DNA of 64,000 bases from Candidatus Doudnabacteria bacterium (GTDB lineage Bacteria > Patescibacteriota > Doudnabacteria > UBA920): the NCBI GenBank assembly GCA_031291995.1, contig JARLHZ010000010.1:37155-101154 (forward strand), written 5' to 3'. Within the stretch, counting starts at the first letter, position 1. Each line of letters starts with the position of its first letter. The translations under genes and the position numbers were made by a program. Shown in pieces: positions 19,812 to 58,396 of the stretch. Under the pieces are notes generated by a model. The model had not been told where the DNA came from, searched no databases, and was given only the letters and a program-made list of their open reading frames with translations.

Positions 19812-20819
19812 TTATACTTCTTTAACAGTTTTACTGTTTAAATCGACTAAAACTTTCCGCAGATCGTCAGCTAGTTCCGACTCGGCTTCTATCCAGGAAT
19901 TGTCCGGAAGGCGGACTTCAATTTTTTTTGCGTGAAGGAATTGTCTGTGTAGGCCTGGTAAAACAGTCCTTTTCCCGCCATAGAGCTCATCACCCATAAG
20001 CGGGTGTCCTGTGCTGGCAAGGTGGACCCGGATCTGATGTGTTCTGCCTGTATGCAATTTTACCAGAATTAGGGTGTATTTGTCAACCCCGGCCGCAGCT
20101 CTCCCCTCCTTTTCAAGGAGGGGTCCTCGCGAAGCGAGGGGGGTGGTTGGAGTTGGCAGATATTCCAAAACCTGATATTCGGTCACGGCTTCCTTGGCTA
20201 ACACCGGATCTTTGGCCGTTTGTTTCCGGAAATCAGTTTTGCTCTTACCAATGGGCGTTTCAATAAAACCATGCCGCTTTTCAATCTTGCCAAAAACCAG
20301 CGCGATATATTCTTTCTTGATTTTTCGTTCCGCAAACGCGTCTTTTAAAAACTCGTACATTTCCTGGGTTTTGGCCACTAAAATGACCCCGCTGGTATCC
20401 TTGTCCAGCCTATGCACAATCCCCGGCCGGTGATCTTCCCCCACAACCCTAATGTCCTTGAAATGATAGAGCAATGCCGAGGCCAATGTCTCCCCTTTAA
20501 ATCCCGCTCCCGGATGAACAGTCAGCCCTGCGGGTTTGTCTATAATGAGTAGTCCGTGATTATTATATAAAACTTTCAATGGCGTATTCGTCGCCTTCAA
20601 CTCTGTCTGCCGATTTGCGTCTGCTGATTGCTTATAGCTGACTTTATCGTTCAACCGCACCACAAACTTACTCTCCACAATAGGCTGCCCGTTAACCTCC
20701 GCCTGACCGCCCTCTATGTCGCGCTGAATCTGGCTGCGGCTTATCTGCGGCAGCTGCTTGGCCAGATATTTATCCAGCCGGGTTTTTAATTCTTCAACGA
20801 CAAAAGAATGTTCGGACAT
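19812..20819 (-). CDS. RluA-family pseudouridine synthase (RluD-like) with an in-frame hairpin-element insertion
   Basis: S4 domain N-terminus, HRLDKDTSGVILVAKT catalytic motif, TGRTHQIRVH; a 24-aa insert encoded by the palindromic element at 20088-20150. Confidence 0.85.
   Translation of the reverse strand: MSEHSFVVEELKTRLDKYLAKQLPQISRSQIQRDIEGGQAEVNGQPIVESKFVVRLNDKVSYKQSADANRQTELKATNTPLKVLYNNHGLLIIDKPAGLTVHPGAGFKGETLASALLYHFKDIRVVGEDHRPGIVHRLDKDTSGVILVAKTQEMYEFLKDAFAERKIKKEYIALVFGKIEKRHGFIETPIGKSKTDFRKQTAKDPVLAKEAVTEYQVLEYLPTPTTPLASRGPLLEKEGRAAAGVDKYTLILVKLHTGRTHQIRVHLASTGHPLMGDELYGGKRTVLPGLHRQFLHAKKIEVRLPDNSWIEAESELADDLRKVLVDLNSKTVKEV
20088..20150. repeat. GC-rich hairpin mini-element (ctcccctcc-ttttca-aggagggg; cctcgcgaagcgagg) inserted in-frame in the rluD-like gene
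   Basis: Read directly; same family at 52878-52920, 56944-57070 and 32245-32300. Confidence 0.7.
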
Positions 20820-20837
20820 AAATGCGATTCAATAATT

Positions 20838-21608
20838 TTATTGGTTGTTCAGCAAATCCGGACGGCGTTTTTTTGTGCGCTTCATTGCCTCATCCATTCT
20901 CCATTTTTCTATATTCGCATGGTGCCCGGATAATAAAACTTTCGGCACCTTCAAAATTTTTCTTCGCTTTGTAGGGACGGGTCTAGACCCGCCCCTACCC
21001 AGGGCAGGAATCATCAAAATTTCCGGTTTTGTATACTGCGGAAATTCCAGGCTATTTTCGGAAAAAGATTCTTTATCTGCGGATTCATCCTTGCCCAAAA
21101 TCCCTGACCTCAATCTCATTACCGCTTCGCTGATAACCAACGCGGGCAATTCTCCGCCCATTAAAACATAATCCCCGATGGAGATTTCTTCGTCTACAAA
21201 ACTTCTCACCCGCTCATCAAAGCCCTCGTATCTACCGCAGACAAAAATTAACTCATTAAATTTTGCCAATCGCTGGGCCATTTTTTGGTCAAACTTTTGG
21301 CCCTGGGGTGTTAACAAAATTATACGTGCCTGTGTAGGGGCGGATATTATCCGCCCCCTATGATCAGAGACCGACTTTATCGCTTTATATAAAATATCCG
21401 CGCGTAACACCATACCCACACCGCCGCCATATGGCCGGTCGTCAACAACCTGCCTCTCACCCAAACCAAACGAACGTAAGTTTATCGGCTGAATTTGTAA
21501 AAGCCCTAACTTAATAGCTCTTTTTACAATTCCAAAAGACTCCACAAAATTTTCTATAAATGAGGGAAATAACGTAATAATTTTAATCGATAACTTTTTA
21601 GACCTCAT
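20838..21608 (-). CDS. trmD: tRNA (guanine37-N1)-methyltransferase TrmD carrying two in-frame palindromic insertions
   Basis: TrmD motifs ([13 protein letters not shown]; [13 protein letters not shown]); extra segments [20 protein letters not shown] and IISAPTQAR coincide with the palindromes at 20971-20998 and 21333-21360. Confidence 0.85.
20971..20998. repeat. 28-bp palindrome gtagggacgggtctagacccgcccctac (in-frame in trmD)
   Basis: Near-identical perfect palindrome gtagggacaggtctagacctgtccctac at 54214-54242. Confidence 0.8.
21333..21360. repeat. Palindrome tgtaggggcggatattatccgcccccta (in-frame in trmD)
   Basis: Read directly. Confidence 0.7.
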
Positions 21609-21763
21609 GCAATTATTTTAGTAACTTTCGTGCTCTTTAATATTTGGTAGAGACGTCAATATTATAGCATTAAAATAACCCCGGAACGCCGGCAGCCGCC
21701 GGAAATTTCGGGGTTATTAAATTTATAGATTCCGCGTTAGATCCGCGTGCGGATCCGCGTATC

Positions 21764-22129: not shown

Positions 22130-22285
22130 AATAGTGCAATTTCTGTGATAGCGTAATTCTGCTTCGACCTTTTCGTTAAATTAGCGCGAGCTATCTTGGG
22201 GATATTATAGGCGAAAGCGGGCTTAGCTGTCAATTATAAAATCCCCAGATGGGAATCTTCTGGGGATTTAGAATTGAATTCTGAA

Positions 22286-23173: not shown

Positions 23174-25792
23174 CTATTTCGCGTACTGCTTAGCCTGATC
23201 CAATTTTACGGAAAGCAATTTACTTACGCCATCATCACCCATCGTAACACCATACAAAATGTTGGCCTGGGTCATGGTTTCGCGGTTGTGGGTAATGGTT
23301 AAAAATTGGGTCTGGTGAGCCAGGGTGCCTAAAATTTGGCCGAAGCGGATGGTGTTGGCGTCATCCAAAGCCGCGTCCACTTCGTCCAAAACCACGCAGG
23401 GGGACGGAAAGCAGGTTAGCAGGCTGCACAGCAGGGCAATGGAGGTCATAGCCCGTTCTCCGCCGGACAGCGCCTGAATGCTGGCCAGTTTCTTGCCCGG
23501 AGGCGTAGCCTTAATATCAATGCCGGAAATCGCGTTGCCGGTATGCTCGTATTTTTGCAAAACTTTTTCTTCAGGCCGCAAATCCTGCGGCTGGTTGTCG
23601 TCGGCTTCCGCTCCGGCTTCCACCGGCAATTCTTCGGGTGGCTCATTTTTTATAACGCTTAAATACCCGCGGCCACCGTTAAACAATACTCGGAAATAAA
23701 ATTCAAATTTTTCGCTAATCTTACGGAACGCCTCGTTAAAAGTATCCTTAATCCGCCCGTCCAAATCATCAATAACCTGGCGCAAATCCGTCATGCCTTT
23801 TTGCAAATCCGCCACCTGCGTGCTCAGATTCTGGTGCCGGGTTTCAGTTTCCTGATATTCTTTAAGTGTTAACTCATCCATTCCGCCGATGGTTTCCAGC
23901 TGATTTTTTAACCTGGCTATTTTGTTTTCCAAATCGTCAGTACTGGTTGCCACTTTGCTTTCCCCCAGCGTTTGCCACTCCGGCTGCCCCAAAGTTTTGA
24001 CTACCTCTTCAGCGAGAAGCTGCAGTTGAGTATCTATCTTGGCTTTTTCAATATTTATTATCGACTCTTTGTCTTTAATTTTGGACAGTTCATCCTGGGC
24101 AAGGCGGAACTGGCCTTCGGCGCCCCTCAAACCAGCCTGCCTTTTTTCCTGTTCGCTGTAATGCAGCTTTAGTTCAGTTTCAACTTTGGCCATTTCCTGG
24201 CCCAATTTGTCAACGTCAGCCTGGATTCTTTTTTCCTCCGACAGTAAATTCTGCCAAAATTCATCGGGAGAACTGCTCTGGACCTTTTTTAGTTCCAAAT
24301 CCAAATGCAACTTTTCCTGCTGCAGAGCGGCCAGTTCGCGCTGTAAAAAGTCGACGGCTATCTTGCCCTTGCTCATTTCCAACTGGGCATTATTGACTTC
24401 CTGGTTTAAAACTTCCTTTTGCTTAAGCAACTGATCCAATTCTTGTTTAACCGCTTCCAAACCCAGCCGCGGGTCAGCCACCGTCTGCTTGGCCGCCTTG
24501 CGGAATCTGGTAAAGCTTTCTTCCATGCTATTAGCCTGGTGTTTTATTTCCTCTAGGTTTACCGCCTGTACCAGCATCTGGCTAAATTTTTGCCAGGCTT
24601 CTTCCAGCACGCGCAATTCCAACTCCACAAGATTCCAGTCTATCTGGGCGGGATTACTCAGTTTTTTTGACAGTTCATCAAGTTTTTTATTGACCGTTTC
24701 CAGGCTTTTAAATTGATCGACAAATTTATTCTCCAGCTGCTTTTGCGTTTCCAGCGTATTTTGAATTTGGCCGGTAACTTCCTGAATTTTTCCATGTTTG
24801 TTGTGGACTTCCACCGTCAGGCTTTGGGCATCGCCGGCCACGGCTGTTTTTTGGCTTTGCATTTTCCCCCGTACCAGGCTCAAATCTTCAAGCAAGCGGT
24901 TTTTTTGCGCCTGGAGTTTGTGGAATTCTTCCTGAATTTTTGCAAACGTTCCGCCGCTTTGCTGCCCCGCCTGTTCCAATCCTTCGGCCTGCTGTCTTAA
25001 ATTTGCGGCCTTGGTTTCGCCCGCTTTTTTATGTTCTTCGATTTCCGACAGCTGTTGCAAAATTTTATCGGAAGTCTCTTTAAATTGCCAAAAACTGCGT
25101 CCGTAAAATTCCCGCCGGTAAATTTTTAATTCCTGTTCCAATTCGGCCCTGGCTTCCAACTTTTTCGCCTGGCGGCGCAAACTTTTTAATCTTGGTTCAA
25201 TTTCGGCGATTAAATCTTCCGCCCTCATTAAATTCTGGGCGGTCTGTTCCAAACGCCTTAAAGTTTTATCGCGCTTTATATAATAATTTTTAACCCCGCT
25301 TGCCTCGTCAACCAGATCTTTTACGCCCGGCGGCCCCTGCATAACCATTTGGTCTATAGTGCCCTGGCCGATTACCGTATAGCGGGATGTGCCGATGTTG
25401 CTTTTTAAAACCAAATCCACAATATCCAAAAGCCTGACTTTATTGCCGTTTATCAAATATTCGCTTTCTCCGCTTCGGTCGATTCGCCGCCCAATGCTGA
25501 CTTCCGAAGCATCCAGAGGTATCCGGTGATCGGAATTATCGAACGTGGCGACAACTTCGGCAAAACCCTGCCTCGTCTTTTTATCGCTGCCCGCAAAAAT
25601 CACGTCATCGCTTTTTTTGCCGCGGATAGCCTTGGCGCTCTGCTCGCCCAAAACCCAGCGCATAGCGTCGGCGACGTTGCTCTTGCCGCTGCCGTTGGGG
25701 CCGACAATCGCAATAATCCCCGCTGAAAATTCCAGCGCGGTTTTTTGGGCGAAACTTTTAAATCCGTGGATTTCGAGGCGTTTTAAATACAT
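23174..25792 (-). CDS. smc: Chromosome segregation protein SMC
   Basis: N-terminal Walker A (GPNGSGKSN), long coiled coils, hinge, C-terminal signature LSGGE and Walker B (VLDEVDAALD). Confidence 0.93.
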   Translation of the reverse strand: MYLKRLEIHGFKSFAQKTALEFSAGIIAIVGPNGSGKSNVADAMRWVLGEQSAKAIRGKKSDDVIFAGSDKKTRQGFAEVVATFDNSDHRIPLDASEVSIGRRIDRSGESEYLINGNKVRLLDIVDLVLKSNIGTSRYTVIGQGTIDQMVMQGPPGVKDLVDEASGVKNYYIKRDKTLRRLEQTAQNLMRAEDLIAEIEPRLKSLRRQAKKLEARAELEQELKIYRREFYGRSFWQFKETSDKILQQLSEIEEHKKAGETKAANLRQQAEGLEQAGQQSGGTFAKIQEEFHKLQAQKNRLLEDLSLVRGKMQSQKTAVAGDAQSLTVEVHNKHGKIQEVTGQIQNTLETQKQLENKFVDQFKSLETVNKKLDELSKKLSNPAQIDWNLVELELRVLEEAWQKFSQMLVQAVNLEEIKHQANSMEESFTRFRKAAKQTVADPRLGLEAVKQELDQLLKQKEVLNQEVNNAQLEMSKGKIAVDFLQRELAALQQEKLHLDLELKKVQSSSPDEFWQNLLSEEKRIQADVDKLGQEMAKVETELKLHYSEQEKRQAGLRGAEGQFRLAQDELSKIKDKESIINIEKAKIDTQLQLLAEEVVKTLGQPEWQTLGESKVATSTDDLENKIARLKNQLETIGGMDELTLKEYQETETRHQNLSTQVADLQKGMTDLRQVIDDLDGRIKDTFNEAFRKISEKFEFYFRVLFNGGRGYLSVIKNEPPEELPVEAGAEADDNQPQDLRPEEKVLQKYEHTGNAISGIDIKATPPGKKLASIQALSGGERAMTSIALLCSLLTCFPSPCVVLDEVDAALDDANTIRFGQILGTLAHQTQFLTITHNRETMTQANILYGVTMGDDGVSKLLSVKLDQAKQYAK

Positions 25793-25799
25793 AAATAAA

Positions 25800-25935
25800 A
25801 TGCCAAATAGCAAATACCAAATTACAAATCAATTCCAAATGTAAAATTTAAAATCAGTTTGCGATAAATGTTGGAAATTTGATATTTGGACATTTGGATT
25901 TTGTTTGATATTTGAAATTTGATACTTGAAATTTA
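25800..25935. repeat. AT-rich simple-repeat tract (atttgatatttgga / aatttgatacttgaaattt units)
   Basis: Same repeat family at 46720-46860 and, in shorter form, inside murF at 57505-57530. Confidence 0.6.
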
Positions 25936-26725: not shown

Positions 26726-26859
26726 GTGCCCCTCGACTACACCACGCTGCGCGTGATTGCGCTCGGGACACTCGACTCGCTCTGCACTTCTTCGTTGGTT
26801 GAGGCCTCCCAAAGGCCGAAACCACGAGCGAGCTTCGGCGTTAGCCGAAGCGAGTCGAG
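26726..26859. repeat. Structured repeat element V, immediately 3' of tRNA-Val (second copy 59769-59888, 3' of tRNA-Ala)
   Basis: About 130 bp alignable with 59769-59888; two internal hairpins differ by compensatory substitutions (cttcggcg-ttag-ccgaag vs ctttgacg-aaag-tcaaag; ggcctcccaaaggcc vs gccctttagggc). Confidence 0.7.
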
Positions 26860-26934
26860 TGGTGGGCGGCGAAGGAATCGGACCTTCGACCCTTTCTACG
26901 TCAAAGAAATGCTCTACCACTGAGCTAGCCGCCC
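26860..26934 (-). tRNA. tRNA-Val (anticodon GAC)
   Basis: Manual cloverleaf: acceptor gggcggc/gccgccc, D-arm gctc-agtggtag-gagc, anticodon loop ttGACgt, encoded CCA. Confidence 0.8.
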
Positions 26935-30164: not shown

Positions 30165-30365
30165 AATAAAGGTTCCCCGCCGCAAGCAGCGGGGTATTAC
30201 TGCAAGGAACAGCTGCATCTTCGCGGCAAGCCGCGAGGTATTGAACCTTTCTTTCCGCCAAAGGCGGATCCGCCTCCGGCGGAAGCTCCCTGCCTGGCGG
30301 CAGGCAGGCCTCGGCTCGCTTGTCCTTTGAAAGACAAAGGACAGACTCGCCTACGTCGCGAATAA
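30165..30365. repeat. Structured repeat element L between the pilin-like array and tRNA-Leu (second copy 59608-59760)
   Basis: Shared blocks aataaaggttccccgccgcaagc..ggggtattactgcaa and cctcggctcgct ... ctacgtcgc(g/t)aataaaa; internal hairpins differ (gtcctttgaaagacaaaggac vs cggccataaatggccg); minus-strand end forms a terminator-like GC hairpin plus U-run; carries an extra 28-bp GGATCC palindrome absent from the other copy. Confidence 0.65.
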
Positions 30366-30374
30366 AAACTACAA

Positions 30375-31268
30375 TTATTGCCCTTTGGTAATAACGCTGC
30401 TGATTACGGTAATTATAGCGTACGATAATAGCACGACAATGACGCCGATAATGGAATTAACAATGGCTTTTTTGCCTTTTTCCGACTGCTCCTCGTTGCC
30501 CGCGGAAGTAATATACCAAAAGCCGCCGACAATAAGCATTAGCACGGCAATAACTCCGGCCAGCGCCAACAGCAAAGTAATTATCTTAGTCAATAAATCT
30601 GTCAGGCTATTGCTGGCGCAAATTCCCCCGTTGCAAGCCGAACTGTTCGGCGGCAGGCATAAACCGTTAACCGAAACTAAACCAGCCGCGCAGTTACCTT
30701 GTGTCTGGCCAGTTCCGTTAGTACTTGCGCCGGTAAGCGAGATGCCCATTGCCGTTGCCGTATCAGAGCCGACGATTCCGTCATTGGTCAGGTTGTGTGA
30801 TTGCTGCCAAAGCTGAATTCCCTTGATTGTTTCTGAGTCGCAAGTTCCGCTGTAAGTGACATTGCTGTCAACACCCTGCACGATTCCCTGAATTTGCTTA
30901 ATAATATTTGGGTCGGTAGTGCCGCAAGACCCGCCGCCCTTCGGCGACCCAATAGCGTATTGAGAAGAATTGTTGTTAGCCGGCAATCCACATTTACCGC
31001 TGTTACATACCAGTCCGCTTTTGGAAGTACCGCAATCCGCGCTGGTGGAACAAGGCGTAGTATTCGTTACCGTCTCACAGGTGTTGCCGTTTGTTTTATC
31101 ACAAAATAAGCCGGTAGCGCAATCGGTATTAAAAGTGCATCCGTCCCCCAGCTGCGCGTCGGCAAAAACAAAAAAAGGGTAAGCTAAAAATACGCCAACA
31201 ATTAAGACGACTAATGCCGAAATATTTAAATACCTCAATGAAAACCCTTTTGCATGCGTCCCGTTCAT
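30375..31268 (-). CDS. T4SS-pilin-like (TrbC/VirB2-like) secreted protein with a Cys-rich N-terminal domain, member 1 of a five-gene array
   Basis: Signal peptide; C-terminal conserved block IVGGFWYITSAGNEEQSEKGKKAIVNSIIGVIVVLLSYAIITVI (two TM helices flanking an SAGNEE..EKGK loop) shared by all five paralogs; 12 Cys in the N-terminal domain. Confidence 0.6.
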   Translation of the reverse strand: MNGTHAKGFSLRYLNISALVVLIVGVFLAYPFFVFADAQLGDGCTFNTDCATGLFCDKTNGNTCETVTNTTPCSTSADCGTSKSGLVCNSGKCGLPANNNSSQYAIGSPKGGGSCGTTDPNIIKQIQGIVQGVDSNVTYSGTCDSETIKGIQLWQQSHNLTNDGIVGSDTATAMGISLTGASTNGTGQTQGNCAAGLVSVNGLCLPPNSSACNGGICASNSLTDLLTKIITLLLALAGVIAVLMLIVGGFWYITSAGNEEQSEKGKKAIVNSIIGVIVVLLSYAIITVISSVITKGQ

Positions 31269-31311
31269 TTTGTGTCTATTTTAATTTTCCGGATTCGAAC
31301 AGAAGGAAAAA

Positions 31312-31731
31312 TTAATAACCCGAAGCCACGTAATTGGAAATTACGTTGATAATTACGAATGATAAAACAATTATGACTATGCCAATAATGGCGTTAACCA
31401 CGTTTTGTTTGCCCTTTTCCGCGGCTTCTTCGTTGCCGGCGGAAGTAATATATTGGTAACCGCCGACAATGACAAACACAATGGCGATAGCCCCGGCAAT
31501 ATACAGCAGCATGGTTATTACCAAATAAATTAAACCGTTCTGGCCGGTCAGATGCGTCGCGCCGCCAATACCCATACCTCCCGTGCCAGGAAATAAACCA
31601 CCAACGCCGTTCAGGCCGCTTCCAAACGCGTCACCGCCCGTGCTTTGGGCCGATACTAATCGCGGCATCGCCAAAATGCTTCCAAAAACAACCGCCGCCT
31701 GCCAATATTTGAGTTGTAAATATTTTTTCAT
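31312..31731 (-). CDS. T4SS-pilin-like small secreted protein, member 2
   Basis: Signal peptide plus C-terminal IVGGYQYITSAGNEEAAEKGKQNVVNAIIGIVIIVLSFVIINV block. Confidence 0.6.
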   Translation of the reverse strand: MKKYLQLKYWQAAVVFGSILAMPRLVSAQSTGGDAFGSGLNGVGGLFPGTGGMGIGGATHLTGQNGLIYLVITMLLYIAGAIAIVFVIVGGYQYITSAGNEEAAEKGKQNVVNAIIGIVIIVLSFVIINVISNYVASGY

Positions 31732-31822
31732 TGTATTTTAAATTTTTTATCAAATCCGAAAACAAAAACAATTTGTTCTCGGATTTGATCCCAAACAATA
31801 CGCTTGGGACCAAAATTTCAAA

Positions 31823-32230
31823 TTACGGCGCGCTAGTCGAATTCGGACTGGCCACCAGGCTGGAAATAACGTTTATAATCACGTAGGACAAGATTATAAT
31901 CACGATACCGATAATTGCGTTAATGGCCGTACCTTTGCCTTTTTCCGCGGTTTCTTCGTTACCGGCTGAGGTAATGTACCAGAAGCCGCCAATAATCAGG
32001 AACAACACGGCAATACCGAAGGCAATGCCCAAGAGCCAGTCAATTACCGTGCGAATAAAACCGTTAATGCTGGTAGATTGACAGTTTAAACCCGTTGACG
32101 GGTCGCACTGAAAATTGGCATTTAACTGAGCGCTTGCCAACACCGGAGCGGAAATTAACATAACGGACAACATAACTTCCGCAATTTTAATCAGTTTTTC
32201 TTTTTTTATTATTTGTTTCAAGCTGTTCAC
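31823..32230 (-). CDS. T4SS-pilin-like small secreted protein, member 3
   Basis: C-terminal IIGGFWYITSAGNEETAEKGKGTAINAIIGIVIIILSYVIINV block. Confidence 0.6.
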   Translation of the reverse strand: MNSLKQIIKKEKLIKIAEVMLSVMLISAPVLASAQLNANFQCDPSTGLNCQSTSINGFIRTVIDWLLGIAFGIAVLFLIIGGFWYITSAGNEETAEKGKGTAINAIIGIVIIILSYVIINVISSLVASPNSTSAP

Positions 32231-32244
32231 CCCCTCTCTGTACC

Positions 32245-32300
32245 TTTCCCTCTCCCTCCTTGCCCGCCGAAGCCTTTTGGCAAAGGCGGGTGGGAGAGGA
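32245..32300. repeat. GC-rich nested-hairpin element (cctctccctcc ... gcccgccgaagccttttggcaaaggcgggtgggagagg) between pilin-like genes 3 and 4
   Basis: Read directly; an extended -10 (tgGTATAAT) lies just upstream on the minus strand at about 32330-32345. Confidence 0.55.
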
Positions 32301-32370
32301 CAAAGGTGAGGGATTAGGATTAATTTTTAATTTGACTTTATTATACCACAATAGTTACCTTGTTTCCATG

Positions 32371-32814
32371 CTAACTCCCATGCAACAGTAAATTTGAAAT
32401 AATTCTGACGATAACGGTGGCTAAAATTACCACCACCAAACCGATAACTGAGTTAATGATTATTTTTTTACCTTTTTCCGACTGCTCCTCGTTGCCGGCC
32501 GAAGTCACATAAAAGAATCCGCCAATTATTAAAAAGACCGCCGTGACCACGCCAACCAGGCCCATTGCCCAATAAAATACCGCCAAAACCAGGCCGCTAG
32601 CCGAGCAAAAATAAGGCAGGCTGCTGCTGGCTACCACATTGGCGCCGGAACTCAATCCGAATTGGCTCATAAAATTGGCACATCGCTGGTCAGAAGAAAT
32701 TACCGGCGCCTGATTTTGCGCCCCGGCCACAGCCGGCACCAACGCCAAAAATGACAAGTTGAATAGAACCAGCAGTGAGGCGATTTTCGCGAACTTGATA
32801 AATTTAATTCCCAT
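32371..32814 (-). CDS. T4SS-pilin-like small secreted protein, member 4
   Basis: C-terminal IIGGFFYVTSAGNEEQSEKGKKIIINSVIGLVVVILATVIVRI block. Confidence 0.6.
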   Translation of the reverse strand: MGIKFIKFAKIASLLVLFNLSFLALVPAVAGAQNQAPVISSDQRCANFMSQFGLSSGANVVASSSLPYFCSASGLVLAVFYWAMGLVGVVTAVFLIIGGFFYVTSAGNEEQSEKGKKIIINSVIGLVVVILATVIVRIISNLLLHGS

Positions 32815-35872: not shown

Positions 35873-37378
35873 CTATTCTGTTTTTGGCCGGTAAATTAGG
35901 GCTTCACCGAGATGCCGGGCTGAAATTTCTTTCGCGCCGGCCAAGTCGGCAATGGTGCGGGAAACTTTTAATATTCGGTGGAGCGAGCGCCCGGAAAAAT
36001 TATATTTTTTCATGGCCGATTTCAGCACATCCTGCTCGGTTTTGGCCAGCCGGCAGTATTGCTTTAATTCCGGCAAATTCATCTCGCTGTTTGTCTTGCT
36101 GGAATTGTACCGCTTTTGCTGGACGGCGCGGGCGGCCGAAACCCGTTTTTTAATTGCCTCCGAACTTTCCGAGCGCTGCTGGTCTGTCATTTTTTCGTAA
36201 GGCAGCCGCGGTACTTCCACGTGCAGGTCAATGCGGTCTAGCAGCGGACCCGAAACTTTTTTTTGATATTTAAAAATTTGTCCGGGACTGCAAACGCAGG
36301 GTTTTTGCCGGTCTCCGGCATAACCGCAGGGACACGGGTTTTGAGCGGCGACCAAAGTAAATTTTGCCGGAAAAGTAAAACTGCCCGACGCGCGCGCGAC
36401 CGTCACCACGCCGTCTTCCAACGGCTGGCGTAGCGCCTCTAAGACATTGCGGGGAAATTCCGGAAACTCATCCAAAAACAAAATTCCCCTGTGCGACAGG
36501 GTAATTTCACCCGGGCGCGGATTTGCCCCGCCGCCGACCAAAGCGACATTGGACGTGGTGTGGTGCGGACTGCGCACCGGACGGCTGGACACCAAACTTC
36601 CGGAAAGTTTGCCGGCAATACTGTAAATTTTAGTCAGCTCCAGGGCTTCGCTTAGGGATAAATCCGGTAATATGCCGGCCATTGCCCGGGCCAAAAGCGT
36701 TTTGCCGCTGCCGGGCGGGCCGGACAACAGGAGATTATGCGAGCCCGCAGCGGCAATTTCCAAAGCGCGTTTGGCCAGTTCCTGCCCGGCGATATCAGCC
36801 ATATCCAGCGCCGCGCTCAAATTTTTTAAAATGTTTTCCGGTTTTTGGCGGGGCTCGGGCCGTAGGACGACAAGCCCCGACAAATGCCCGAATAATTTCC
36901 TTAAGCTGTCCACCGCGTAAACTTTAATGCCCTCGACCAAAGCCGCTTCTTTGGCGTTTTGTTTGGGCACGAATAATTCCTTAAAGCCCGCCTCCGCCGC
37001 TTTTATAGCGGCGGCCAGAACGCCGGGAACCGGACGCAGTTGCCCGTCCAAAGACAGTTCTCCCAAAAACATTTTTCCTCTACCGTCAAACACCAGCTGG
37101 TCTGAGGCCGCAAGCACTCCAAGCGCTATTGGCAAATCAAAATGCGTCCCCAGTTTGGGCACGTCGGCCGGAGCTAAATTTATCGAAACGCGGGTGGGCG
37201 GATAATTACACTCGGAATTCTTAATGGCCGCCTTGACGCGTTCGCGGCTTTCCTGGACCGCGGTATCCGGCAGTCCGACAACAATAGTCGCGGGCAACCC
37301 GTTGGTCACGTCGACTTCAACCTCAATCAGTTCCGCGTTTAACCCGATAACCGCGGCGGAAAAAACTTTGGCAATCAT
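35873..37378 (-). CDS. YifB/ComM-family Mg-chelatase-like AAA+ ATPase
   Basis: N-terminal Lon-like domain (AELIEVEVDVTNGLP), Walker A GPPGSGKT, C-terminal ChlI-like domain; start at the internal Met MIAKVFSA. Confidence 0.85.
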   Translation of the reverse strand: MIAKVFSAAVIGLNAELIEVEVDVTNGLPATIVVGLPDTAVQESRERVKAAIKNSECNYPPTRVSINLAPADVPKLGTHFDLPIALGVLAASDQLVFDGRGKMFLGELSLDGQLRPVPGVLAAAIKAAEAGFKELFVPKQNAKEAALVEGIKVYAVDSLRKLFGHLSGLVVLRPEPRQKPENILKNLSAALDMADIAGQELAKRALEIAAAGSHNLLLSGPPGSGKTLLARAMAGILPDLSLSEALELTKIYSIAGKLSGSLVSSRPVRSPHHTTSNVALVGGGANPRPGEITLSHRGILFLDEFPEFPRNVLEALRQPLEDGVVTVARASGSFTFPAKFTLVAAQNPCPCGYAGDRQKPCVCSPGQIFKYQKKVSGPLLDRIDLHVEVPRLPYEKMTDQQRSESSEAIKKRVSAARAVQQKRYNSSKTNSEMNLPELKQYCRLAKTEQDVLKSAMKKYNFSGRSLHRILKVSRTIADLAGAKEISARHLGEALIYRPKTE

Positions 37379-37387
37379 AGAATGAGC

Positions 37388-37450
37388 ATTTAAAAAATTG
37401 ACAAAATTGAGCAAAATTGAGCAAAATTCTTTAATACCATTTTTGACAAT
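37388..37450. promoter_or_regulatory. Cluster of TTGACAA / TTGAGCAA repeats upstream of the yifB-like gene
   Basis: attgacaaaattgagcaaaattgagcaaaatt ... tttgacaatttttt ... ttgtcatttttgtcaat. Confidence 0.5.
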
Positions 37451-37453
37451 TTT

Positions 37454-37933
37454 TTAAATTTTGTCATTTTTGTCAATAACTTTGGCGGGCTTGAGCGCTA
37501 ATAAGATAATTCCTAAAATAATATACCCATCGGCCAGATTATATATTCCCACCCAATGATAAAAAGCAATGTAAATAAAATCGCGCACGTAGCCAAGCGC
37601 GATTCTTTCCGCGATGTTACAAAATGCGCCGGCAAAAATAAGGACGAATGCCAGCCGCATTATGCCGGTAAACTCGCGGTGATGTTTAGCGGCGTAATAT
37701 ATCAAACCGGCCATAACGCCAAAATATATCAAATACATTAAAAAAACCGGCACCGGCAGGCTAAACGCGAATTGCCGATTTTGAAAAATATTTTGGGCGG
37801 CAGACTTACTGAACTGGTCAGCCGCCACCAAAAAAATAAATAAAAAAGCGATAAGCCAATTTTTTTTGCTTTCGCTTTTTTTGAAATCGGTAAAATTTTC
37901 CATAAAAAACAGTATTTGGCGCATCCGGTGCAT
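37454..37933 (-). CDS. lspA: Lipoprotein signal peptidase II
   Basis: LspA conserved motifs (DQFSK; GAFCNIAERIALGYVRDFIYIAF; IYNLADGYI). Confidence 0.8.
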   Translation of the reverse strand: MHRMRQILFFMENFTDFKKSESKKNWLIAFLFIFLVAADQFSKSAAQNIFQNRQFAFSLPVPVFLMYLIYFGVMAGLIYYAAKHHREFTGIMRLAFVLIFAGAFCNIAERIALGYVRDFIYIAFYHWVGIYNLADGYIILGIILLALKPAKVIDKNDKI

Positions 37934-46719: not shown

Positions 46720-46860
46720 CGGGCAATATCAAATTACAAATGTTAAATTACAAACAAAATCCAAATGTCAAAAATCAAATTACTCCGGCATTATAATAAA
46801 TTTGATTTTGATATTTGGATTTTGGTCTTGATTTGAAATTTTAAATTTGTAATTTTTAAT
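46720..46860. repeat. AT-rich simple-repeat tract (caaattacaaatg / atttgattttgatatttggattttg units), same family as 25800-25935
   Basis: Read directly. Confidence 0.6.
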
Positions 46861-51875: not shown

Positions 51876-53234
51876 CTATGGGTGGAATAATTTAATTATT
51901 GCGTCAAATTCTTTGTTATTCAATAATTTCTTTTCCAATACCAATTCACGGATGGTTTTGTTGCTATTGACGGCTTCCTTTACTAATTCACTGGCTTGGT
52001 CATAGCCGAGTTTTGGACTGAGCAGGGTGGCGTAGGCTGTGGATTTTTCCAGGAGTTCTTTACAACGCGCGCGGTCGGCTTTTATGCCGTCCACGCATTT
52101 TTTGGCAAATTGCAAAATTAATTCATCCATCAATTTTAAACTTTCAATTAACCGGTCGGTCATTATTGGCAGCATTACTCCCAGTTCCAGCTGAGCCCCT
52201 TCGGCTCCGTGCTCAATGGTCAAATTATTGCCCGAGACCAAAAAGTACAGCTGGCTAACGGCTTCAAGTAAAACAGGATTCACTTTGCCCGGCATAATCG
52301 ACGAGCCGGCCTGCAGCTCCGGAATCATGATTTCTCCCAATCCCCCTTTGGGCCCGGCCGAGAGCCAGCGCAGGTCGTTGGAAATTTTGGACAGGTCGAC
52401 GCAAAACGCGACCAACGCCTGTGACATCCAGACAAAGTCGCTGTCACTACTGGTTTGAGGCATAAAGTTAGCCGCGGGCTTTAGCGGCAGTTTGGTAATT
52501 TTATCGAGTTCAATGTATAACTGCTTAATGTATTTTGGAGAGGCGTTTATGGAATTACCGACCGCCGTGCCGCCTAAATTCAGCTCCAACAGATTCTCCA
52601 TAGCTTTGCGGATTCGCTGCTGGCCGCGCCTGACGTATGCTTCGTACGAGGCAAATTCGCTTCCCAAGGTAATAGGTACCGCGTCCTGCAGATGCGTGCG
52701 ACCAAGTTTTACTATTGATGAAAAATCGCGGGATTTTTTTTGCAGGCTTAGCGCCAGTACATCCGTTGTCGCGAGCAATTTTTGCGCCAAACGGTAAGCG
52801 GCAATCTTAAATGCCGACGGCATAACATCATTTGTCGAATGCGACATGTTAACATGGTCGTTGGGATGCACCAGCGGAAGCTCTCCCCTTTTGAGGGGAG
52901 ATGCCCGAAGGGCAGAGAGGTTGCCTTGCAAAATCTCAGTAGCCCGGGCGGCAATTACCTCGTTGGCATTCATGTGGTTTGAAGTCCCGGCGCCGCCCTG
53001 AAATGCCGGCAGGACAAATTGCTCCCAGTGTTTGCCTTCCAGTATCTCATCGCAGGCCTTCACAATCGCGGTTTTCCTGGCATTATCCAATTCTCCCACT
53101 TTATTATGGGCAATGGCCGCGGCTTTTTTAATTTCCACTAATGCCAGCAAAAACTCTCTGGGAGCTTTACGGAAACTGAACGGAAAATTCTTAATCGCCT
53201 TTTCCGTTTGCGCACCGTAATATTTTTTATTCAT
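51876..53234 (-). CDS. Class II fumarase/aspartase family lyase (FumC/AspA) with an in-frame hairpin-element insertion
   Basis: Signature GSSIMPGKVNP; HPNDHVNMSHSTND block; extra LSALRASPLKRGELPL encoded by the element at 52878-52920. Confidence 0.85.
   Translation of the reverse strand: MNKKYYGAQTEKAIKNFPFSFRKAPREFLLALVEIKKAAAIAHNKVGELDNARKTAIVKACDEILEGKHWEQFVLPAFQGGAGTSNHMNANEVIAARATEILQGNLSALRASPLKRGELPLVHPNDHVNMSHSTNDVMPSAFKIAAYRLAQKLLATTDVLALSLQKKSRDFSSIVKLGRTHLQDAVPITLGSEFASYEAYVRRGQQRIRKAMENLLELNLGGTAVGNSINASPKYIKQLYIELDKITKLPLKPAANFMPQTSSDSDFVWMSQALVAFCVDLSKISNDLRWLSAGPKGGLGEIMIPELQAGSSIMPGKVNPVLLEAVSQLYFLVSGNNLTIEHGAEGAQLELGVMLPIMTDRLIESLKLMDELILQFAKKCVDGIKADRARCKELLEKSTAYATLLSPKLGYDQASELVKEAVNSNKTIRELVLEKKLLNNKEFDAIIKLFHP
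52878..52920. repeat. Hairpin mini-element (ctcccc-tttt-gagggga; cccgaagggc) in-frame in the fumC/aspA-like gene
   Basis: Same family as 20088-20150 and 56944-57070. Confidence 0.65.
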
Positions 53235-53428: not shown

Positions 53429-53456
53429 TAAACCCCCGAATTCGGGGGTTTTAGAT
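53429..53456. terminator. Terminator hairpin (aacccccgaattcgggggtt plus T-run) shared by tRNA-Ser (+) and rnhB (-)
   Basis: Read directly. Confidence 0.75.
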
Positions 53457-54212
53457 TGACCGCAAATTTTTGCAAAAACTTTTACGATGAACCGACGACA
53501 AGCCGTTTTGGAGAATCATTGTTCGATGAAACAAAGTACCGTAACCTTTGTGCTGGGCAAAGTTGTAGATTGGGTAGTCCTGATGAATTTTGGTCATAAG
53601 CCGATCGCGATAAACTTTCGCGATTATAGAGGCGGCGGCAATCGAAAGAATTTTATTGTCACCGTCTACTACGGCTTCCTGGTCAATATCAAAATTGGGG
53701 ATAGTAAATTTGCCATCGATAACCAAAAATGGTCTTTTCGTGCCTTTGTAGTGCAGGCCCTCGGCCTGCTTTTTCTTTTGGGGCAGGCCATGGGCCTGCA
53801 CTACATGAGAAAATAATAACCCTTCAACTGCCTTGCGCATTGCCAGCAATGTCGCGTTGTGAATATTTATTTCGTCAACTATTTCCTGCGAAACTTGCCC
53901 GATGCTCCAAGCGAGCGCCTGCTCTTTAATAATAGAGGATAATTCTTCGCGCTTTTTAACGGAAAGTAATTTGCTATCGCGCACACCCTGCTTCATGTCC
54001 CATGTTTCAAGATTCATGATTACCGCCCCGGCCACCACCGGTCCGGCCAGACACCCGCGTCCGACTTCGTCGCAGCCGATAACCATGTGATAACCATCGG
54101 ATATTTTTTTCTGTTCGTAGCGAAAATTCATAGGTTTAATGTCAAACAAGATTTCTTGCAAATCCGTTTCACCCTTTTCTGGCTTAACACCATCAAAGCG
54201 AAGATGAAACAC
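53451..54212 (-). CDS. rnhB: Ribonuclease HII with an in-frame palindromic insertion (N-terminal extent uncertain)
   Basis: VIGCDEVGRGCLAGPVVAGAV catalytic N-terminus, DSK ... motif; 21-aa insert VVQAHGLPQKKKQAEGLHYKG encoded by the nested palindrome at 53748-53810. Confidence 0.85.
   Translation of the reverse strand: MFHLRFDGVKPEKGETDLQEILFDIKPMNFRYEQKKISDGYHMVIGCDEVGRGCLAGPVVAGAVIMNLETWDMKQGVRDSKLLSVKKREELSSIIKEQALAWSIGQVSQEIVDEINIHNATLLAMRKAVEGLLFSHVVQAHGLPQKKKQAEGLHYKGTKRPFLVIDGKFTIPNFDIDQEAVVDGDNKILSIAAASIIAKVYRDRLMTKIHQDYPIYNFAQHKGYGTLFHRTMILQNGLSSVHRKSFCKNLRSI
53748..53810. repeat. Nested palindrome gtagtgcaggccc-tcggcctgc ... ggcaggcca-tgggcctgcactac, in-frame in rnhB
   Basis: Related copy gtagtgcgggccacgggcctgcactac at 58418-58445 (intergenic). 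Confidence 0.7.
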
Positions 54213-54213: not shown

Positions 54214-54242
54214 GTAGGGACAGGTCTAGACCTGTCCCTACG
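54214..54242. repeat. Perfect 28-bp palindrome gtagggacaggtctagacctgtccctac (intergenic, rnhB-ddl)
   Basis: Same family as the trmD in-frame copy at 20971-20998. Confidence 0.8.
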
Positions 54243-54248
54243 AAAAAA

Positions 54249-55503: not shown

Positions 55504-56658
55504 TTACATAATTGTTCTTCTCAAATGCTGCGGGATGTGCACCAAAATTTCGTACGGAATACATTCGCAAAGTTTGGCCAAATTCTCTATAGAGTTTTTA
55601 TCATTTTTGTTGGCGCTAATTACAAACACTTCATCTTCCAGCTTTACATCGGGAACTTCGGTTATATCTATGCTGCTCATGTTCATACTCACGCGCCCAA
55701 CAATCGGACAATAAATCCCACAAACCTGATAAGACCCTTTATTGGACAGCCGGCGATCCACTCCTTCAGTATACCCCACCGGCACGGTGGCAACAATCAT
55801 GGGTTTTGTCGCTTCAAACGTAACCCCATAGCCGACTTTTTCCCCGGCTCCGATTTTTTTTATTGAACTGAGTACGGACACGAGCTCCATTACGGGTTTT
55901 AATTCCAGTTTTACTTCACGTGAAGGGTTAATCCCATAAAGTCCAATCCCCAACCGGCTGACGTTGGCCTCGATTTTATCCGCGTAGGCCGCACCGGCGG
56001 TATTAGAAGCGTGAAAATATCGAATATATGAAAACTCTTTTTTAAATTGGACGGCCGTGGAATTCCACTTTGCAATCTGGCCTAAAGTAAACCGGTTATC
56101 CGCGCCGTCGGCATCGGCAAAGTGGGTGCAGAGGCCTTCCAAATTAATATTCCGATTGGATTTAATGGCCTTTATTGCTTCGGCAATTTCCGATTCCATA
56201 ATCCCCTGCCGGTTCATCCCGGTATTTATTTTCAAATGGATGTTCAGCGGCCGAGTTAATTTGGCGGATAAATTTTTTAAAATTCCCAAATCAATAATTC
56301 CAAAGCTGACCTCATTTAGCTTGGCGGATAATAATTCATTTTCCCGGCAATATCCCAAAACCAAAATTTTGGTTTTAATGCCGTGCTGGCGCAAAGTCAG
56401 GGCTTCGTAAAATGAATCAACCATAAAAAACGCCACATCTTGATTATCGAGGACCTCCGCGACCTGGACCATGCCGTGACCATAAGCGTTACTCTTTAAT
56501 ACCGGCGCGAAAATTAAATTTGGATATTTGCCCTGGAAGCCGTGCAAATTAAATAATAGAGCGTCTTTAAAAATCCGCACTTCAATTAACGGTTGGTAAT
56601 TTATTTTTGGTGACAATATTTTATTTAAAATTTTTCTAATGTTGCTCAATTTTGTCAA
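55504..56658 (-). CDS. alr: Alanine racemase
   Basis: PLP-site motif APVLKSNAYGHG; TIM-barrel plus C-terminal beta domain size. Confidence 0.88.
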   Translation of the reverse strand: MTKLSNIRKILNKILSPKINYQPLIEVRIFKDALLFNLHGFQGKYPNLIFAPVLKSNAYGHGMVQVAEVLDNQDVAFFMVDSFYEALTLRQHGIKTKILVLGYCRENELLSAKLNEVSFGIIDLGILKNLSAKLTRPLNIHLKINTGMNRQGIMESEIAEAIKAIKSNRNINLEGLCTHFADADGADNRFTLGQIAKWNSTAVQFKKEFSYIRYFHASNTAGAAYADKIEANVSRLGIGLYGINPSREVKLELKPVMELVSVLSSIKKIGAGEKVGYGVTFEATKPMIVATVPVGYTEGVDRRLSNKGSYQVCGIYCPIVGRVSMNMSSIDITEVPDVKLEDEVFVISANKNDKNSIENLAKLCECIPYEILVHIPQHLRRTIM

Positions 56659-56815
56659 TCTTATTTAATCTTGGTCAATTATTTATACAGGATTTCAGAT
56701 ATTTTTGACTGCCGATGAAATGCTAACTACAGTCAAAAATTCTGGAATGACAGAATTTCCTGTCCCCTCAATTTTGTCAATTTTATTTAATCTTGGTCAA
56801 TTTTGGTCAATTCTA
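56645..56815. promoter_or_regulatory. Two direct copies (56647-56680, 56770-56805) of caattttgtcaat(c/t)ttatttaatcttggtcaatt between murF and alr
   Basis: TTGTCAAT / TTGGTCAAT units, same family as 7110-7160 and 37388-37450. Confidence 0.5.
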
Positions 56816-58396
56816 AATGTACTGGTCTCCCCAGTCGTTCTGAAACATTACCACGTCGCCGGGTTTTAAAATATTTTTCAAGCCCGCGTGGGCTTCTAGT
56901 GCGCTGTCAAACCAAATAATTTGCGGTTTTTTGACTCCAACCACCTCCCCCGCTGACGCGGGTACTCCTCCTTGAAAAGGAGGAGAGCTCGACGTTTTTT
57001 CGGACAACCGCGGAGCCTCCCCTCCTGGCAAGGAGGGGTGTCCCGCAAAGCGGGACGGGGAGGTCTGAATTCCTTCTTCAACAAACCCCGTCACGCTATT
57101 TCTTATAAAAATTGCAACGTCCGCCACGCCGGCAAGCTCCCGGCCAATTTGCCGATGAACTTCGGCGGAAGAGTTCCCCATTTCCACCAAACCGGGCGTA
57201 ATATATATTTTCCGCCGGTTTGTGAATCGCGACAAAACCTTTATTGCCTCCCCCACCCCGTCCGGATTGCCGTTGTACGCGTCATCTATAACTAATACCT
57301 CGCCCGCCGATTTAATCGGCTGCAGCCGGTGCTCCACGGGCTTTATATTTGTAATACCCCGTTTCAGCTCATCATCCGACATCCCCAAATTTTTGCCGAT
57401 CTTGACCGCCGCGTCCACATCACCCAGCGCGTACTCTCCCAATAAGTTTACTTCAATTTTACCAAACGATTCCAATTCCGCTTCCCAGCAAAGTTTTTCG
57501 GTATTAAATTTTTGATATTTGATATTTGATATTTGTCCGCCAAAGGCGGATCCGCCTTTGGCGGAATATTTTTCCACCTTGTGGTCCGGCCAAATAAATT
57601 TTTTATAATTATCCATTACTCTTTTATCATCGGCGTTTAACAGCACCACAGCTCCGGGCTCGGAGCCGCTGACAATTTCAAAAATCGTGGACGCCACCGT
57701 TTCCATATTTTTCATTCGTTCCAAATGCGATTCGTTTATGCCGGTTACCACGGCAATATTAGGCTTTGCTATATCGCAGATCTCCCCAATGTCCCCGGCG
57801 TAATGTTCCCCCATTTCTACTATTAATACCTGAGTTTCATCAGTCACCTTATTTAAAATCCACCGCGCGATTCCCACCGGCGTATTTACACTGTCCGGAG
57901 TGGCTAATACCTTAAACCTAATACCTAATACCTTCCCCAGTACTTCCTTCATCGTAGTCTTGCCGTAACTGCCCGCTACCCCGATTATTTTTAAATCAGG
58001 CGGCATATTACCGATTTTAGATTTGGCGCGGATCGCCAATCTTTTTTTTGCCAAACTATCAAACGGTTTAAGCAGCAATAATACAACGCTAAATAACAAA
58101 AAATAAAAAGGCGACAAAATTATCGCCGCGATAACCGCGGCAACAAAAAAATTGCCGATTGAACCGGTTAAAATTACAGTTATTAAGCCGCTAAAAATTA
58201 TGACAAAACCGTGCAAAGCCACCGCCATAAGCATCATTGCCTTGGCTTTTACGCTCCACACCAATTCCTTCCGCTGTTCCCCTCTCGGCCATGGCCCCTT
58301 TTTAAATAACAACTTCCAATACCTGCCCAGCTCATAGTTTTCCAGCTGGAGCAGGTACAATTGATACCTTATAAATTTCGGAACAATAAAATCCAT
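56813..58396 (-). CDS. murF: Mur ligase family UDP-MurNAc-pentapeptide synthetase (MurF-like) with an N-terminal membrane extension and two in-frame repeat-element insertions
   Basis: Mur ligase P-loop GSYGKTT and middle/C-terminal domains; upstream of alr-ddl; about 100-aa N-terminal segment with 2-3 TM helices; inserts at 56944-57070 and 57505-57564. Confidence 0.75.
   Translation of the reverse strand: MDFIVPKFIRYQLYLLQLENYELGRYWKLLFKKGPWPRGEQRKELVWSVKAKAMMLMAVALHGFVIIFSGLITVILTGSIGNFFVAAVIAAIILSPFYFLLFSVVLLLLKPFDSLAKKRLAIRAKSKIGNMPPDLKIIGVAGSYGKTTMKEVLGKVLGIRFKVLATPDSVNTPVGIARWILNKVTDETQVLIVEMGEHYAGDIGEICDIAKPNIAVVTGINESHLERMKNMETVASTIFEIVSGSEPGAVVLLNADDKRVMDNYKKFIWPDHKVEKYSAKGGSAFGGQISNIKYQKFNTEKLCWEAELESFGKIEVNLLGEYALGDVDAAVKIGKNLGMSDDELKRGITNIKPVEHRLQPIKSAGEVLVIDDAYNGNPDGVGEAIKVLSRFTNRRKIYITPGLVEMGNSSAEVHRQIGRELAGVADVAIFIRNSVTGFVEEGIQTSPSRFAGHPSLPGGEAPRLSEKTSSSPPFQGGVPASAGEVVGVKKPQIIWFDSALEAHAGLKNILKPGDVVMFQNDWGDQYI
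56944..57070. repeat. Composite hairpin element (ctcctccttgaaaaggaggag; cctcccctcctggcaaggaggggtg; gtcccgcaaagcgggac) in-frame in murF
   Basis: Encodes about 39 extra aa (SPSRFAGHPSLPGGEAPRLSEKTSSSPPFQGGVPASAGE). Confidence 0.7.
57505..57564. repeat. (tgatatt)x3-4 microsatellite plus the 28-bp palindrome ccgccaaaggcggatccgcctttggcgg, in-frame in murF
   Basis: The same palindrome (one variant) sits inside repeat L at 30255-30282. Confidence 0.7.

Follow-up and report, generated by a model that had tools for sequence, protein, structure and literature searches.

A GC-rich two-hairpin repeat resembling the Rickettsia palindromic elements sits in-frame in essential genes of a Doudnabacteria genome and its relatives

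We analysed a stretch of 64,000 nucleotides (referred to as the window) from contig JARLHZ010000010.1 of the assembly GCA_031291995.1, which represents a genome of Candidatus Doudnabacteria from the Candidate Phyla Radiation (CPR). The G+C content ranges from 38 to 52% along the window and nearly all of the genes are carried by the minus strand. Among them are the housekeeping genes dnaK-dnaJ-grpE-hrcA, ftsH, recA, ftsK, smc, trmD, ddl, alr and murF, as well as the genes of type IV secretion-like pilin paralogues, which are typical of CPR bacteria. Our data indicate that a GC-rich repeat composed of two hairpins sits in-frame inside essential genes of this genome and of its relatives, much like the Rickettsia palindromic elements (RPEs). 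The initial annotation of the window had proposed RPE-like mini-elements in three genes, encoding an RluD-like enzyme, an enzyme of the aspartase/fumarase family (aspA) and MurF, and a further copy between genes. The sequences are present as it described them and the observation is largely real: it is borne out in the RluD-like gene and in murF, with many more housekeeping genes affected in related CPR genomes, it is marginal for aspA and it is wrong for the intergenic copy.

The copy in the gene of the pseudouridine synthase is a single unit of a subtype termed A (Table 1), whose minus-strand reading gives the peptide PTTPLASRGPLLEKEGRAA. The gene murF, encoding the UDP-MurNAc-pentapeptide synthetase, harbors a complete inverted doublet, in which two units face away from each other across a 12-nt spacer and the outer ends pair as terminal inverted repeats. 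Its outer half is a unit of subtype B with a CTCCTCC/GGAGGAG hairpin 1, a GTACC foot and the end GGAGGTGGTTGGAG, and encodes SSSPPFQGGVPASAGEVVGV; the other half is a type A unit with a degraded terminal repeat (GGGGAGGTCTGAA) and the minus-strand peptide TSPSRFAGHPSLPGGEAPR. The doublet is situated near the C-terminus of the protein (residues ~443-488), and alignments to structures from the Protein Data Bank (PDB) stop short of it. The intervals given earlier for these two genes, 20088-20150 and 56944-57070, were refined to those of Table 1 and score 60-70 bits with the covariance model of the family, whereas the interval in aspA (52878-52920) reaches only a marginal 17.5 bits.

Table 1. Positions in the window of the repeat units, of other hairpin features and of the genes that contain them.
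Feature	Position	Strand	Details
RluD/RluA-family pseudouridine synthase gene	19812..20819	-	335 aa; Pfam PF00849 + PF01479
Single type A unit, in-frame in the RluD-like gene	20091..20152	+	covariance model 63.7 bits, E 6e-15
Hairpin 1 of the RluD unit	20103-20123		CCCCTCCTT/AAGGAGGGG
Hairpin 2 of the RluD unit	20125-20139		CCTCGC-GAA-GCGAGG
Terminal motif of the RluD unit	20140-20152		GGGGTGGTTGGAG
Intergenic composite of other hairpin modules, non-member	32245..32300	.	CCCTCTCCC...GGGAGAGG (GGAGAGG-type) hairpin
Aspartate ammonia-lyase/class II fumarase family gene (aspA)	51876..53234	-	452 aa; Pfam PF00206 + PF10415
Decayed marginal unit in aspA	52872..52923	+	covariance model 17.5 bits, E ~0.013, full model length
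murF (UDP-MurNAc-pentapeptide synthetase) gene	56813..58396	-	527 aa; Pfam PF08245 + PF02875
Complete inverted doublet, in-frame in murF	56935..57069	-	135 nt, 45 codons; single-stranded DNA fold -39.6 kcal/mol, z -5.4
Type B unit, outer half of the murF doublet	56935..56995	-	covariance model 69.5 bits, E 2e-16
Type A unit, other half of the murF doublet	57008..57069	+	covariance model 59.6 bits, E 8e-14
In-frame palindrome in murF from a second, unrelated family	57536..57565	-	TCCGCCAAAGGCGGATCCGCCTTTGGCGGA, perfect 30-nt palindrome, encodes SAKGGSAFGG

The similarity between these copies lies far above chance. The RluD copy and the first murF copy are 86% identical across 50 nt (blastn E 5e-5 in the window), a hidden Markov model (HMM) made from the copies of related genomes recovered 56935-56990 (E 3e-14), 20097-20152 (E 1e-12) and 57009-57064 (E 6e-10) with nhmmer, and the covariance model gives the three units 59.6-69.5 bits. 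The hairpin-1 pattern occurs four times in the window, as compared to 0.22 occurrences expected from shuffled sequences. At the sequence level it is thus confirmed that the copies in the RluD-like gene and in murF are members of one repeat family. One would argue that such copies could arise by chance, from the composition of GC-rich loops or as an assembly artefact, and the aspA copy alone is indeed not significant. However, the three units reach E values of 1e-12 to 1e-16, which refutes chance for the RluD and murF copies, and the element recurs at the same sites in independent JGI, ENA and NCBI assemblies; this explanation can be practically dismissed.

The anatomy of the unit was derived from an alignment of 79 copies. 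Its ~62 nt comprise four parts in a fixed order: a GCGGAGC segment, in the form (C)CGCGGAGC; hairpin 1, a 9-bp stem in which CCCCTCC or CTCCTCC pairs with GGAGGGG or GGAGGAG; hairpin 2 of ~6-7 bp and variable sequence; and the terminal motif, which is GGGGTGGTTGGAG in the basic form and follows the pattern GG(G/A)GGTGGTTGGAG. The parts are linked into two subtypes: in A units CCCCTCC...GGAGGGGTG is followed by hairpin 2 and then by GACGGGGTGGTTGGAG, in B units CTCCTCC...GGAGGAGTA is followed by CCCCGCGAAGCGGGG and then by GGAGGTGGTTGGAG. Among the type A units the foot of hairpin 2 is GACG (reverse complement CGTC) in 51 out of 63, and 41 of the 42 type B units have GTACC there. A full element pairs one B unit with one A unit, inverted relative to each other, across a spacer of 10-25 nt, which gives a length of ~135-147 nt, the measured doublets being 128-171 nt long. 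The doublet ends, CTCCAACCACC(C/T)CC ... GG(G/A)GGTGGTTGGAG, form terminal inverted repeats of 13-16 nt that are not present in single units. Hence the one module type proposed in the initial annotation proved to be a 62-nt two-hairpin unit, with an inverted doublet in murF and, in aspA, a decayed copy at best.

The hairpins of the unit covary and the structure is maintained. In the 126 CPR units described below, pairing is found in 92.5% of the cells compared to 78% after shuffling and 56-69% with a slid partner, although these figures lean towards structure because the alignment was fitted to the model. Compensatory changes on both sides occur in 13 of the 15 pairs, and hairpin 2 shows CG, GC, UA and AU at the same positions. 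Predicted single-stranded DNA folds of the doublets consist of a terminal stem with four or five side hairpins (z -5.4 to -7.8). Hairpin 1 also contains AAGGAGG, a perfect Shine-Dalgarno-like sequence, paired with CCTCCTT. Rfam gave no match at the gathering score for seven element-rich loci, and the sub-threshold matches were to generic long hairpins only (E >= 0.02). The element could in principle be an attC-like site of an integron: its CTCCAAC...GTTGGAG ends resemble the RYYYAAC/GTTRRRY cores with six of the seven positions of each core fitting, its length is close to that of attC sites, and as single-stranded DNA this imperfect palindrome is predicted to fold. However, the copies stand singly in housekeeping genes and not at cassette boundaries in arrays, the window is devoid of an integrase and single units lack one of the two cores. 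Thus an integron origin is very improbable.

In all three host genes of the window the reading frame is preserved, as had been claimed initially: the genes are intact and homologs align on both sides of each insert. The insertion site in the RluD-like protein, LEYL^xGVDxYTL, is empty in many of the 120 orthologs compared (66-78% identity), and it holds an element of the same family in seven of them (P0002, P0009, P0010, P0017, P0020, P0022 and P0057). Other orthologs carry unrelated repeat peptides at this very site, namely PSPLTPxPKGEG, SDKSENRKIGKSD, HPAFGHLLPQGEK, GEKGLKGE and SANQLISESANQ. Likewise, the murF site of the orthologs is occupied by a matching doublet, by other repeat types or by nothing; taken together, many orthologs at 50-78% identity have nothing inserted at the RluD or the murF site. 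One metagenome contains both alleles of the RluD site, an empty one (TTA AGC AGT GGC GTT GAC) and a filled one, and cutting exactly CTCCAACC...GGTTGGAG (147 nt) out of the filled site restores the open frame. We looked both for conservation of the inserted segments in unrelated lineages and for an inter-copy similarity at the level of shuffled sequence, and found neither. The inserts in the RluD-like protein and MurF are lineage-specific, in agreement with the initial annotation. Several sites hold the same insert in different genomes, so these shared insertions appear to be old and inherited.

The insert of the RluD-like protein (approximately residues 222-247) seems to be compatible with the protein fold. 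In the PDB alignment residues 223-247 map between residues 218 and 220 of E. coli RluD, which form a turn. The AlphaFold model of the protein has a mean predicted local distance difference test score (pLDDT) of 85, and the insert (pLDDT 47-68) lies between the strands 213-221 and 248-255. The insert is thus predicted to be a low-confidence loop between two beta-strands in this protein, the one that was modelled.

The evidence for the aspA copy is of a different grade. It is the next-best match of the window after the three units, but its nhmmer E value is 0.29 and its fold (z -1.9) is not better than that of shuffled sequences. Two short hairpins are present in the copy (TCTCCCCT/AGGGGAGA and GCCC-GAA-GGGC), and its peptide is NLSALRASPLKRGELP; the protein has ~9-10 extra residues at positions 106-116 when compared to its PDB homologs. 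An ortholog of 81% identity carries a different hairpin (TLTPNPSPKGRGE) at this site, while orthologs of 66% identity and the PDB homologs carry none. At best, the aspA copy is a decayed member of the family. The intergenic sequence that had been listed as a further copy was rejected, as it gives no match with either the HMM or the covariance model at E values up to 10-100; it combines two other hairpin modules, one of them a nested CTTGCCCGCC...GGCGGG module. In the relatives, main-family units carry CTTGCCCGCCGAAGC...GGCGGG, which is nested in them at GCGG^AGC (L046, L073, L081, L009 and L019). Since such modules are nested both in the hairpin of the window and in main-family units, they appear to insert into one another.

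The census extended the family far beyond the window. In the sampled DNA of CPR relatives the covariance model detected 126 units from 56 sources, 65 of them in one metagenome-assembled genome (MAG), and their loci comprise 53 single units versus 33 doublets; one MAG has its own subtype, GAGGGGGTTGGAG, in at least eight copies. An exact pattern of 26 positions was found in 95 stretches from ~25 MAGs of a collection containing one genome for each of 185,579 species. At least six of these MAGs are of the Doudnabacteria type and one belongs to Saccharibacteria; the others are assigned by name to Contendobacter and other Gammaproteobacteria, Burkholderiales, Acidobacteriota/Terriglobia/Pyrinomonadaceae, Planctomycetota, Coraliomargarita and Tannerellaceae. 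The unit is therefore found in Proteobacteria, Acidobacteriota, Bacteroidota and others, and outside the CPR it is located mostly between genes. The 42 non-CPR loci contain 78 units by the covariance model, often clustered, and they are not misplaced CPR contigs because their G+C content is 47-67%. The family was not found in phage, plasmid and IMG/VR collections, and a profile of the encoded peptide, a short and low-complexity query, gave only four weak matches in a collection of 5.8 billion proteins.

The arrangement of the units differs between the groups. In the non-CPR MAGs L014, L016, L059 and L037 they form dense clusters, for instance seven within ~900 nt in L014, in contrast to the scattered single or doublet copies of CPR genomes. 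In the Contendobacter (L004, ~180-370) and Tannerellaceae (L045, ~40-110) MAGs the units are placed directly upstream of the gene of RNase P RNA; in L004 the end motif belongs to a 64-nt tandem repeat, and the Tannerellaceae units are oriented the opposite way, so that the so-called terminal repeats are at the centre.

We next consider how the family behaves in genes, defining a copy as lying in a long open frame if a stop-free stretch of at least 40 codons is present on both sides. This applies to 48 of the 86 CPR elements (~56%), compared to 54% of random positions, and in the Tannerellaceae MAG 19 of 20 elements lie outside such frames. The host genes in CPR relatives include those for an IleRS-like class I synthetase, AlaRS, ArgRS, GatB, PurH, Dus (with two insertions in one gene), KsgA, TatD and an ABC transporter. 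Twelve of the 16 doublets with both ends intact have a length that is a multiple of three; the remaining ones are 146, 137 and 136 nt long and clearly intergenic, apart from one of 128 nt in a long open frame, whose ends are uncertain. In open reading frames the left end is read as CCA ACC (Pro-Thr, giving PTT) in 30 of 35 cases and the right end as G GTG GTT GGA (VVG) in 19 of 24. The peptide of this preferred frame, PTTPS..GGHPSL..GGEAPRLS..SSPPFQGGVP..GEVVG, is rich in Pro, Thr, Ser and Gly. Stop codons alone are not sufficient for the frame bias because the alternative frames are stop-free in 58-79% of the units, and the likeliest cause would be a filter acting at the peptide level.

The same data bear on the notion that the segments are removed after transcription, like introns, or skipped by the ribosome through translational bypass, so that they would be missing from the proteins. 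The strong hairpins of the element in coding sequence would agree with that. However, removal or bypass does not need a preserved frame, yet the copies within coding sequence have lengths divisible by three, contain no stops and share one preferred frame, the clearly intergenic doublets are not multiples of three, and no intron or ribozyme family of Rfam was matched. Thus it is highly unlikely that the segments are absent from the proteins.

The terminal inverted repeats CTCCAACCACC...GGTGGTTGGAG on doublets of 128-171 nt and the tens of copies per genome could also be explained by a classical MITE (miniature inverted-repeat transposable element), that is, an insertion sequence shortened by deletion, which a DDE transposase mobilises by recognising the 13-16 nt ends. 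However, none of the 16 intact-end doublets is flanked by a target-site duplication, single units without one of the repeat ends outnumber the doublets, the Tannerellaceae units have the "terminal" repeats in the middle, a longer element with the family ends was not found in the sampled loci and neither was the family in phage, plasmid and viral collections. Therefore, a DDE-type MITE is improbable, if somewhat less so than an integron site. The multi-copy nature implied by the initial annotation is thus borne out by the count in CPR DNA, and the target-site duplications that it had brought up are absent.

Taken together, the family probably represents multi-copy, small non-coding hairpin repeats of the kind known as repetitive extragenic palindromic (REP) sequences and their REPIN assemblies, or as RPEs. 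Its mobility is inferred from the distribution of copies. The units would spread without target-site duplication, and the likely agent would be a hairpin-recognising enzyme that is provided in trans and acts on single-stranded DNA. Many copies would land in genes because CPR genomes have little intergenic space. Genic copies would survive only if they are a multiple of three bases, fall into a surface loop and are read in the frame of a flexible Pro/Thr/Ser/Gly-rich peptide, and purifying selection would remove all but such frame-preserving loop insertions. The surviving copies would then be inherited vertically and decay slowly, and the window may present several grades of this decay: a single unit in the RluD-like gene, a degraded end in murF and a nearly unrecognisable copy in aspA.

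Several facts weigh against hairpin repeats of this kind. As the share of copies in long open frames equals that of random positions, the copies show no measurable bias against genes. This is uncommon among REP-like repeats, and so is the conservation across phyla. The agent is also missing from the material at hand: Pfam and protein scans of the window proteins found no transposase, RAYT (REP-associated tyrosine transposase), integrase or HUH protein, and a tblastn search found no IS200-like gene in ~0.9 Mb of sampled related DNA, although this search is weak, as RAYTs are distant from the IS200 TnpA query and the stretch covered was small. A long autonomous element bounded by the family ends was likewise absent from the sampled loci. 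Near-identical copies that would point to recent movement were absent or rare among the sampled copies; the best matches within a genome have a median identity of ~83-89%, no better than those between genomes. At eight shared sites, including L029/L093, L009/L071, L040/L072, murF of the window/L002/L023, L008/L038 and L088/L081, the element is 78-94% identical between genomes and exceeds, in all eight pairs, the 240-nt coding flanks, which reach 62-78%. Such an excess is not predicted by plain neutral decay and suggests that the nucleic acid is constrained, that copies undergo gene conversion with one another or that near-consensus copies were inserted repeatedly.

One would argue from this excess conservation that the repeat is a selected functional signal in nucleic acid, such as a protein-binding or recombination site, a signal of the DNA-uptake type or a hairpin for mRNA stability or ribosome pausing, the coding copies of which are merely tolerated. 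The covarying stems, the motifs kept across at least six phyla and the Shine-Dalgarno-like sequence paired in hairpin 1 agree with this as well. However, the spread of the exact pattern among the species searched is patchy, copy number and positions vary between close relatives, whose sites are often empty, copies decay (aspA and the degraded end in murF) and the position relative to genes is inconsistent. Thus a functional signal is not likely, but it deserves more weight than the other alternatives, and hairpin repeats of the REP/REPIN or RPE kind remain our preferred explanation.

In the Doudnabacteria genome and its relatives the main family is accompanied by several other hairpin repeats that are likewise inserted in-frame. 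Inverted-repeat pairing and a hairpin scan revealed a second palindrome in murF, encoding SAKGGSAFGG (Table 1), which some murF orthologs have and others lack. The sequence TCCGCCAAAGGCGGATCCGCCTTTGGCGGA has a near copy at 30253-30283 between tRNA-Leu and a pilin gene, and the SAKGGSAFGG peptide type occurs also in trmD of the relative L001. A repeat type with the peptide SEAEESQ...QDDA is present in murF and rnhB of relatives, and the LTPNPSPRGRGE type in their alr, aspA and RluD genes. In the window, trmD (20838-21608) holds two GC-rich hairpins at 20968-20998 and 21329-21360 (GTAGGGACGGGTCTAGACCCGCCCCTAC and GGGGCGGATATTATCCGCCCC), both in segments that trmD of the locus L003 lacks; the first one has a close copy at 54214-54244 between rnhB and ddl. 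The gene rnhB (53451-54212) has two adjoining GCAGGCC...GGCCTGC hairpins at 53753-53799, in a variable segment of RNase HII, and in L002 a different and longer repeat-type insert (SEAEESQ...QDDA) occupies this position. A further insert was suspected in DnaK from a split Pfam match, but the protein aligns normally to solved DnaK structures.

Other repeats of the window were noted in passing. On the minus strand, tRNA-Val (26860-26934) and tRNA-Ala (59890-59963) share a conserved hairpin of ~46 nt that follows each of them (26814-26859 and 59844-59889), the pair having 79% identity across 77 nt including the tRNA 3' end. Repeats of the GATCCGTAGACATCAGTAGATCCG type, direct and inverted with 82-84% identity, are intergenic at 11605-11724 and 62029-62083. 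AT-rich intergenic repeats of the TTGATATTTGAAATTTGATA type (25785-25934 and 46725-46857) form long imperfect palindromes upstream of smc and of a gene for an HTH-domain (helix-turn-helix) protein, respectively. Direct repeats of TTGTCAAT and TTGCTCAAT are found between genes at 7078-7173, 37373-37477 and 56615-56812, one of them just downstream of murF. Finally, the regions 30375-32814 and 12609-15261 contain an array of four type IV secretion-like pilin paralogues with a 113-nt repeat (67-72% identity) and two adjoining subtilase paralogues.

These findings provide a concrete source for lineage-specific insertions in CPR proteins and a warning for their annotation and structure prediction. 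They also offer a natural experiment for asking which frames of a peptide, and which positions in loops, are tolerated in proteins. We tentatively consider a broader possibility, namely that one two-hairpin family spans the CPR and at least six other phyla of soil and freshwater, is more conserved than its essential host genes and, together with at least four unrelated families of hairpin repeats, recolonises the same surface loops of enzymes (RluD, murF, trmD, aspA, alr and rnhB). If this is true, a still-active system of mobilisation or recombination that recognises hairpins would cross phyla, possibly between CPR episymbionts and their hosts, and repeat insertion would be a general source of the unusual insertions in CPR proteins.

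As an element kind the repeat is already known from RPEs and intragenic REPs; the family and its occurrence in the CPR are new as far as the searchable literature shows. Neither the motif nor such elements in CPR bacteria are described in the open-access papers and bioRxiv preprints searched, where the motif strings matched only unrelated eukaryotic primer and aptamer sequences. Prokaryotic MITEs with in-frame intragenic copies include the ERIC/RU elements, QMITE1 of Coxiella and the MITEs of Anabaena (PMC10969869, PMC5896051). Our family resembles them as small non-autonomous repeats with terminal inverted repeats and some in-frame fusions, and differs in lacking target-site duplications and, on its single units, inverted ends, as well as in that the sampled loci contain no parent insertion sequence.

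The likeness to REPs and to REPINs, the doublets that RAYT transposases move, is one of architecture: GC-rich hairpins, occurrence as singlets, inverted dimers and clusters, and no target-site duplication. A conserved short tag at the stem foot may be a further likeness, as the GACG and GTACC feet recall the CGTC and GTAG tags of REPs, and occasional in-frame intragenic copies of the GTAG- and CGTC-tagged REPs have been reported, including ones in genes of a pseudouridine synthase and tRNA synthetases (Di Nocera et al., 2013; PMC3733652). However, the A-T pairs at the first stem positions and the CCA tail of CGTC-REPs (PMC3733652) are not seen in our family. A REP consists of one hairpin of 20-40 nt and is in most cases extragenic and restricted to a species, whereas our family has two hairpins with conserved unpaired flanks and is spread across phyla; about half of its CPR copies are inside genes, and no RAYT gene was found among the window proteins.

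The RPEs, as summarised from Ogata et al. (2000) in a review of prokaryotic MITEs (PMC10969869), are palindromes of ~100-150 bp inserted in-frame in many unrelated housekeeping genes, with a consistent frame, a conserved peptide, a position tolerated by the fold and no known transposase. Our family shares the length of ~100-150 bp, the multiple copies, the in-frame location in unrelated genes with one frame and a conserved peptide, a position that the fold tolerates (in the RluD model), the lack of a known transposase and a small-genomed, host-dependent bacterium as its carrier; this likeness is one of features described in the review (PMC10969869). We do not file the family as an RPE, as its host is Candidatus Doudnabacteria, and it differs from RPEs in belonging to the CPR and not to Rickettsiales, in being built from a 62-nt two-hairpin unit, single or as a doublet, and in occurring also in several other phyla. 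The same review, from 2024, describes in-frame genic palindromes as unusually frequent in Rickettsia (PMC10969869). Here, the in-frame colonisation of essential genes, commonly portrayed as peculiar to Rickettsia, is seen in the Candidate Phyla Radiation, whose members also combine tiny genomes with a dependent lifestyle, and it involves several repeat families, many core enzymes and recurrent hot-spot loops.

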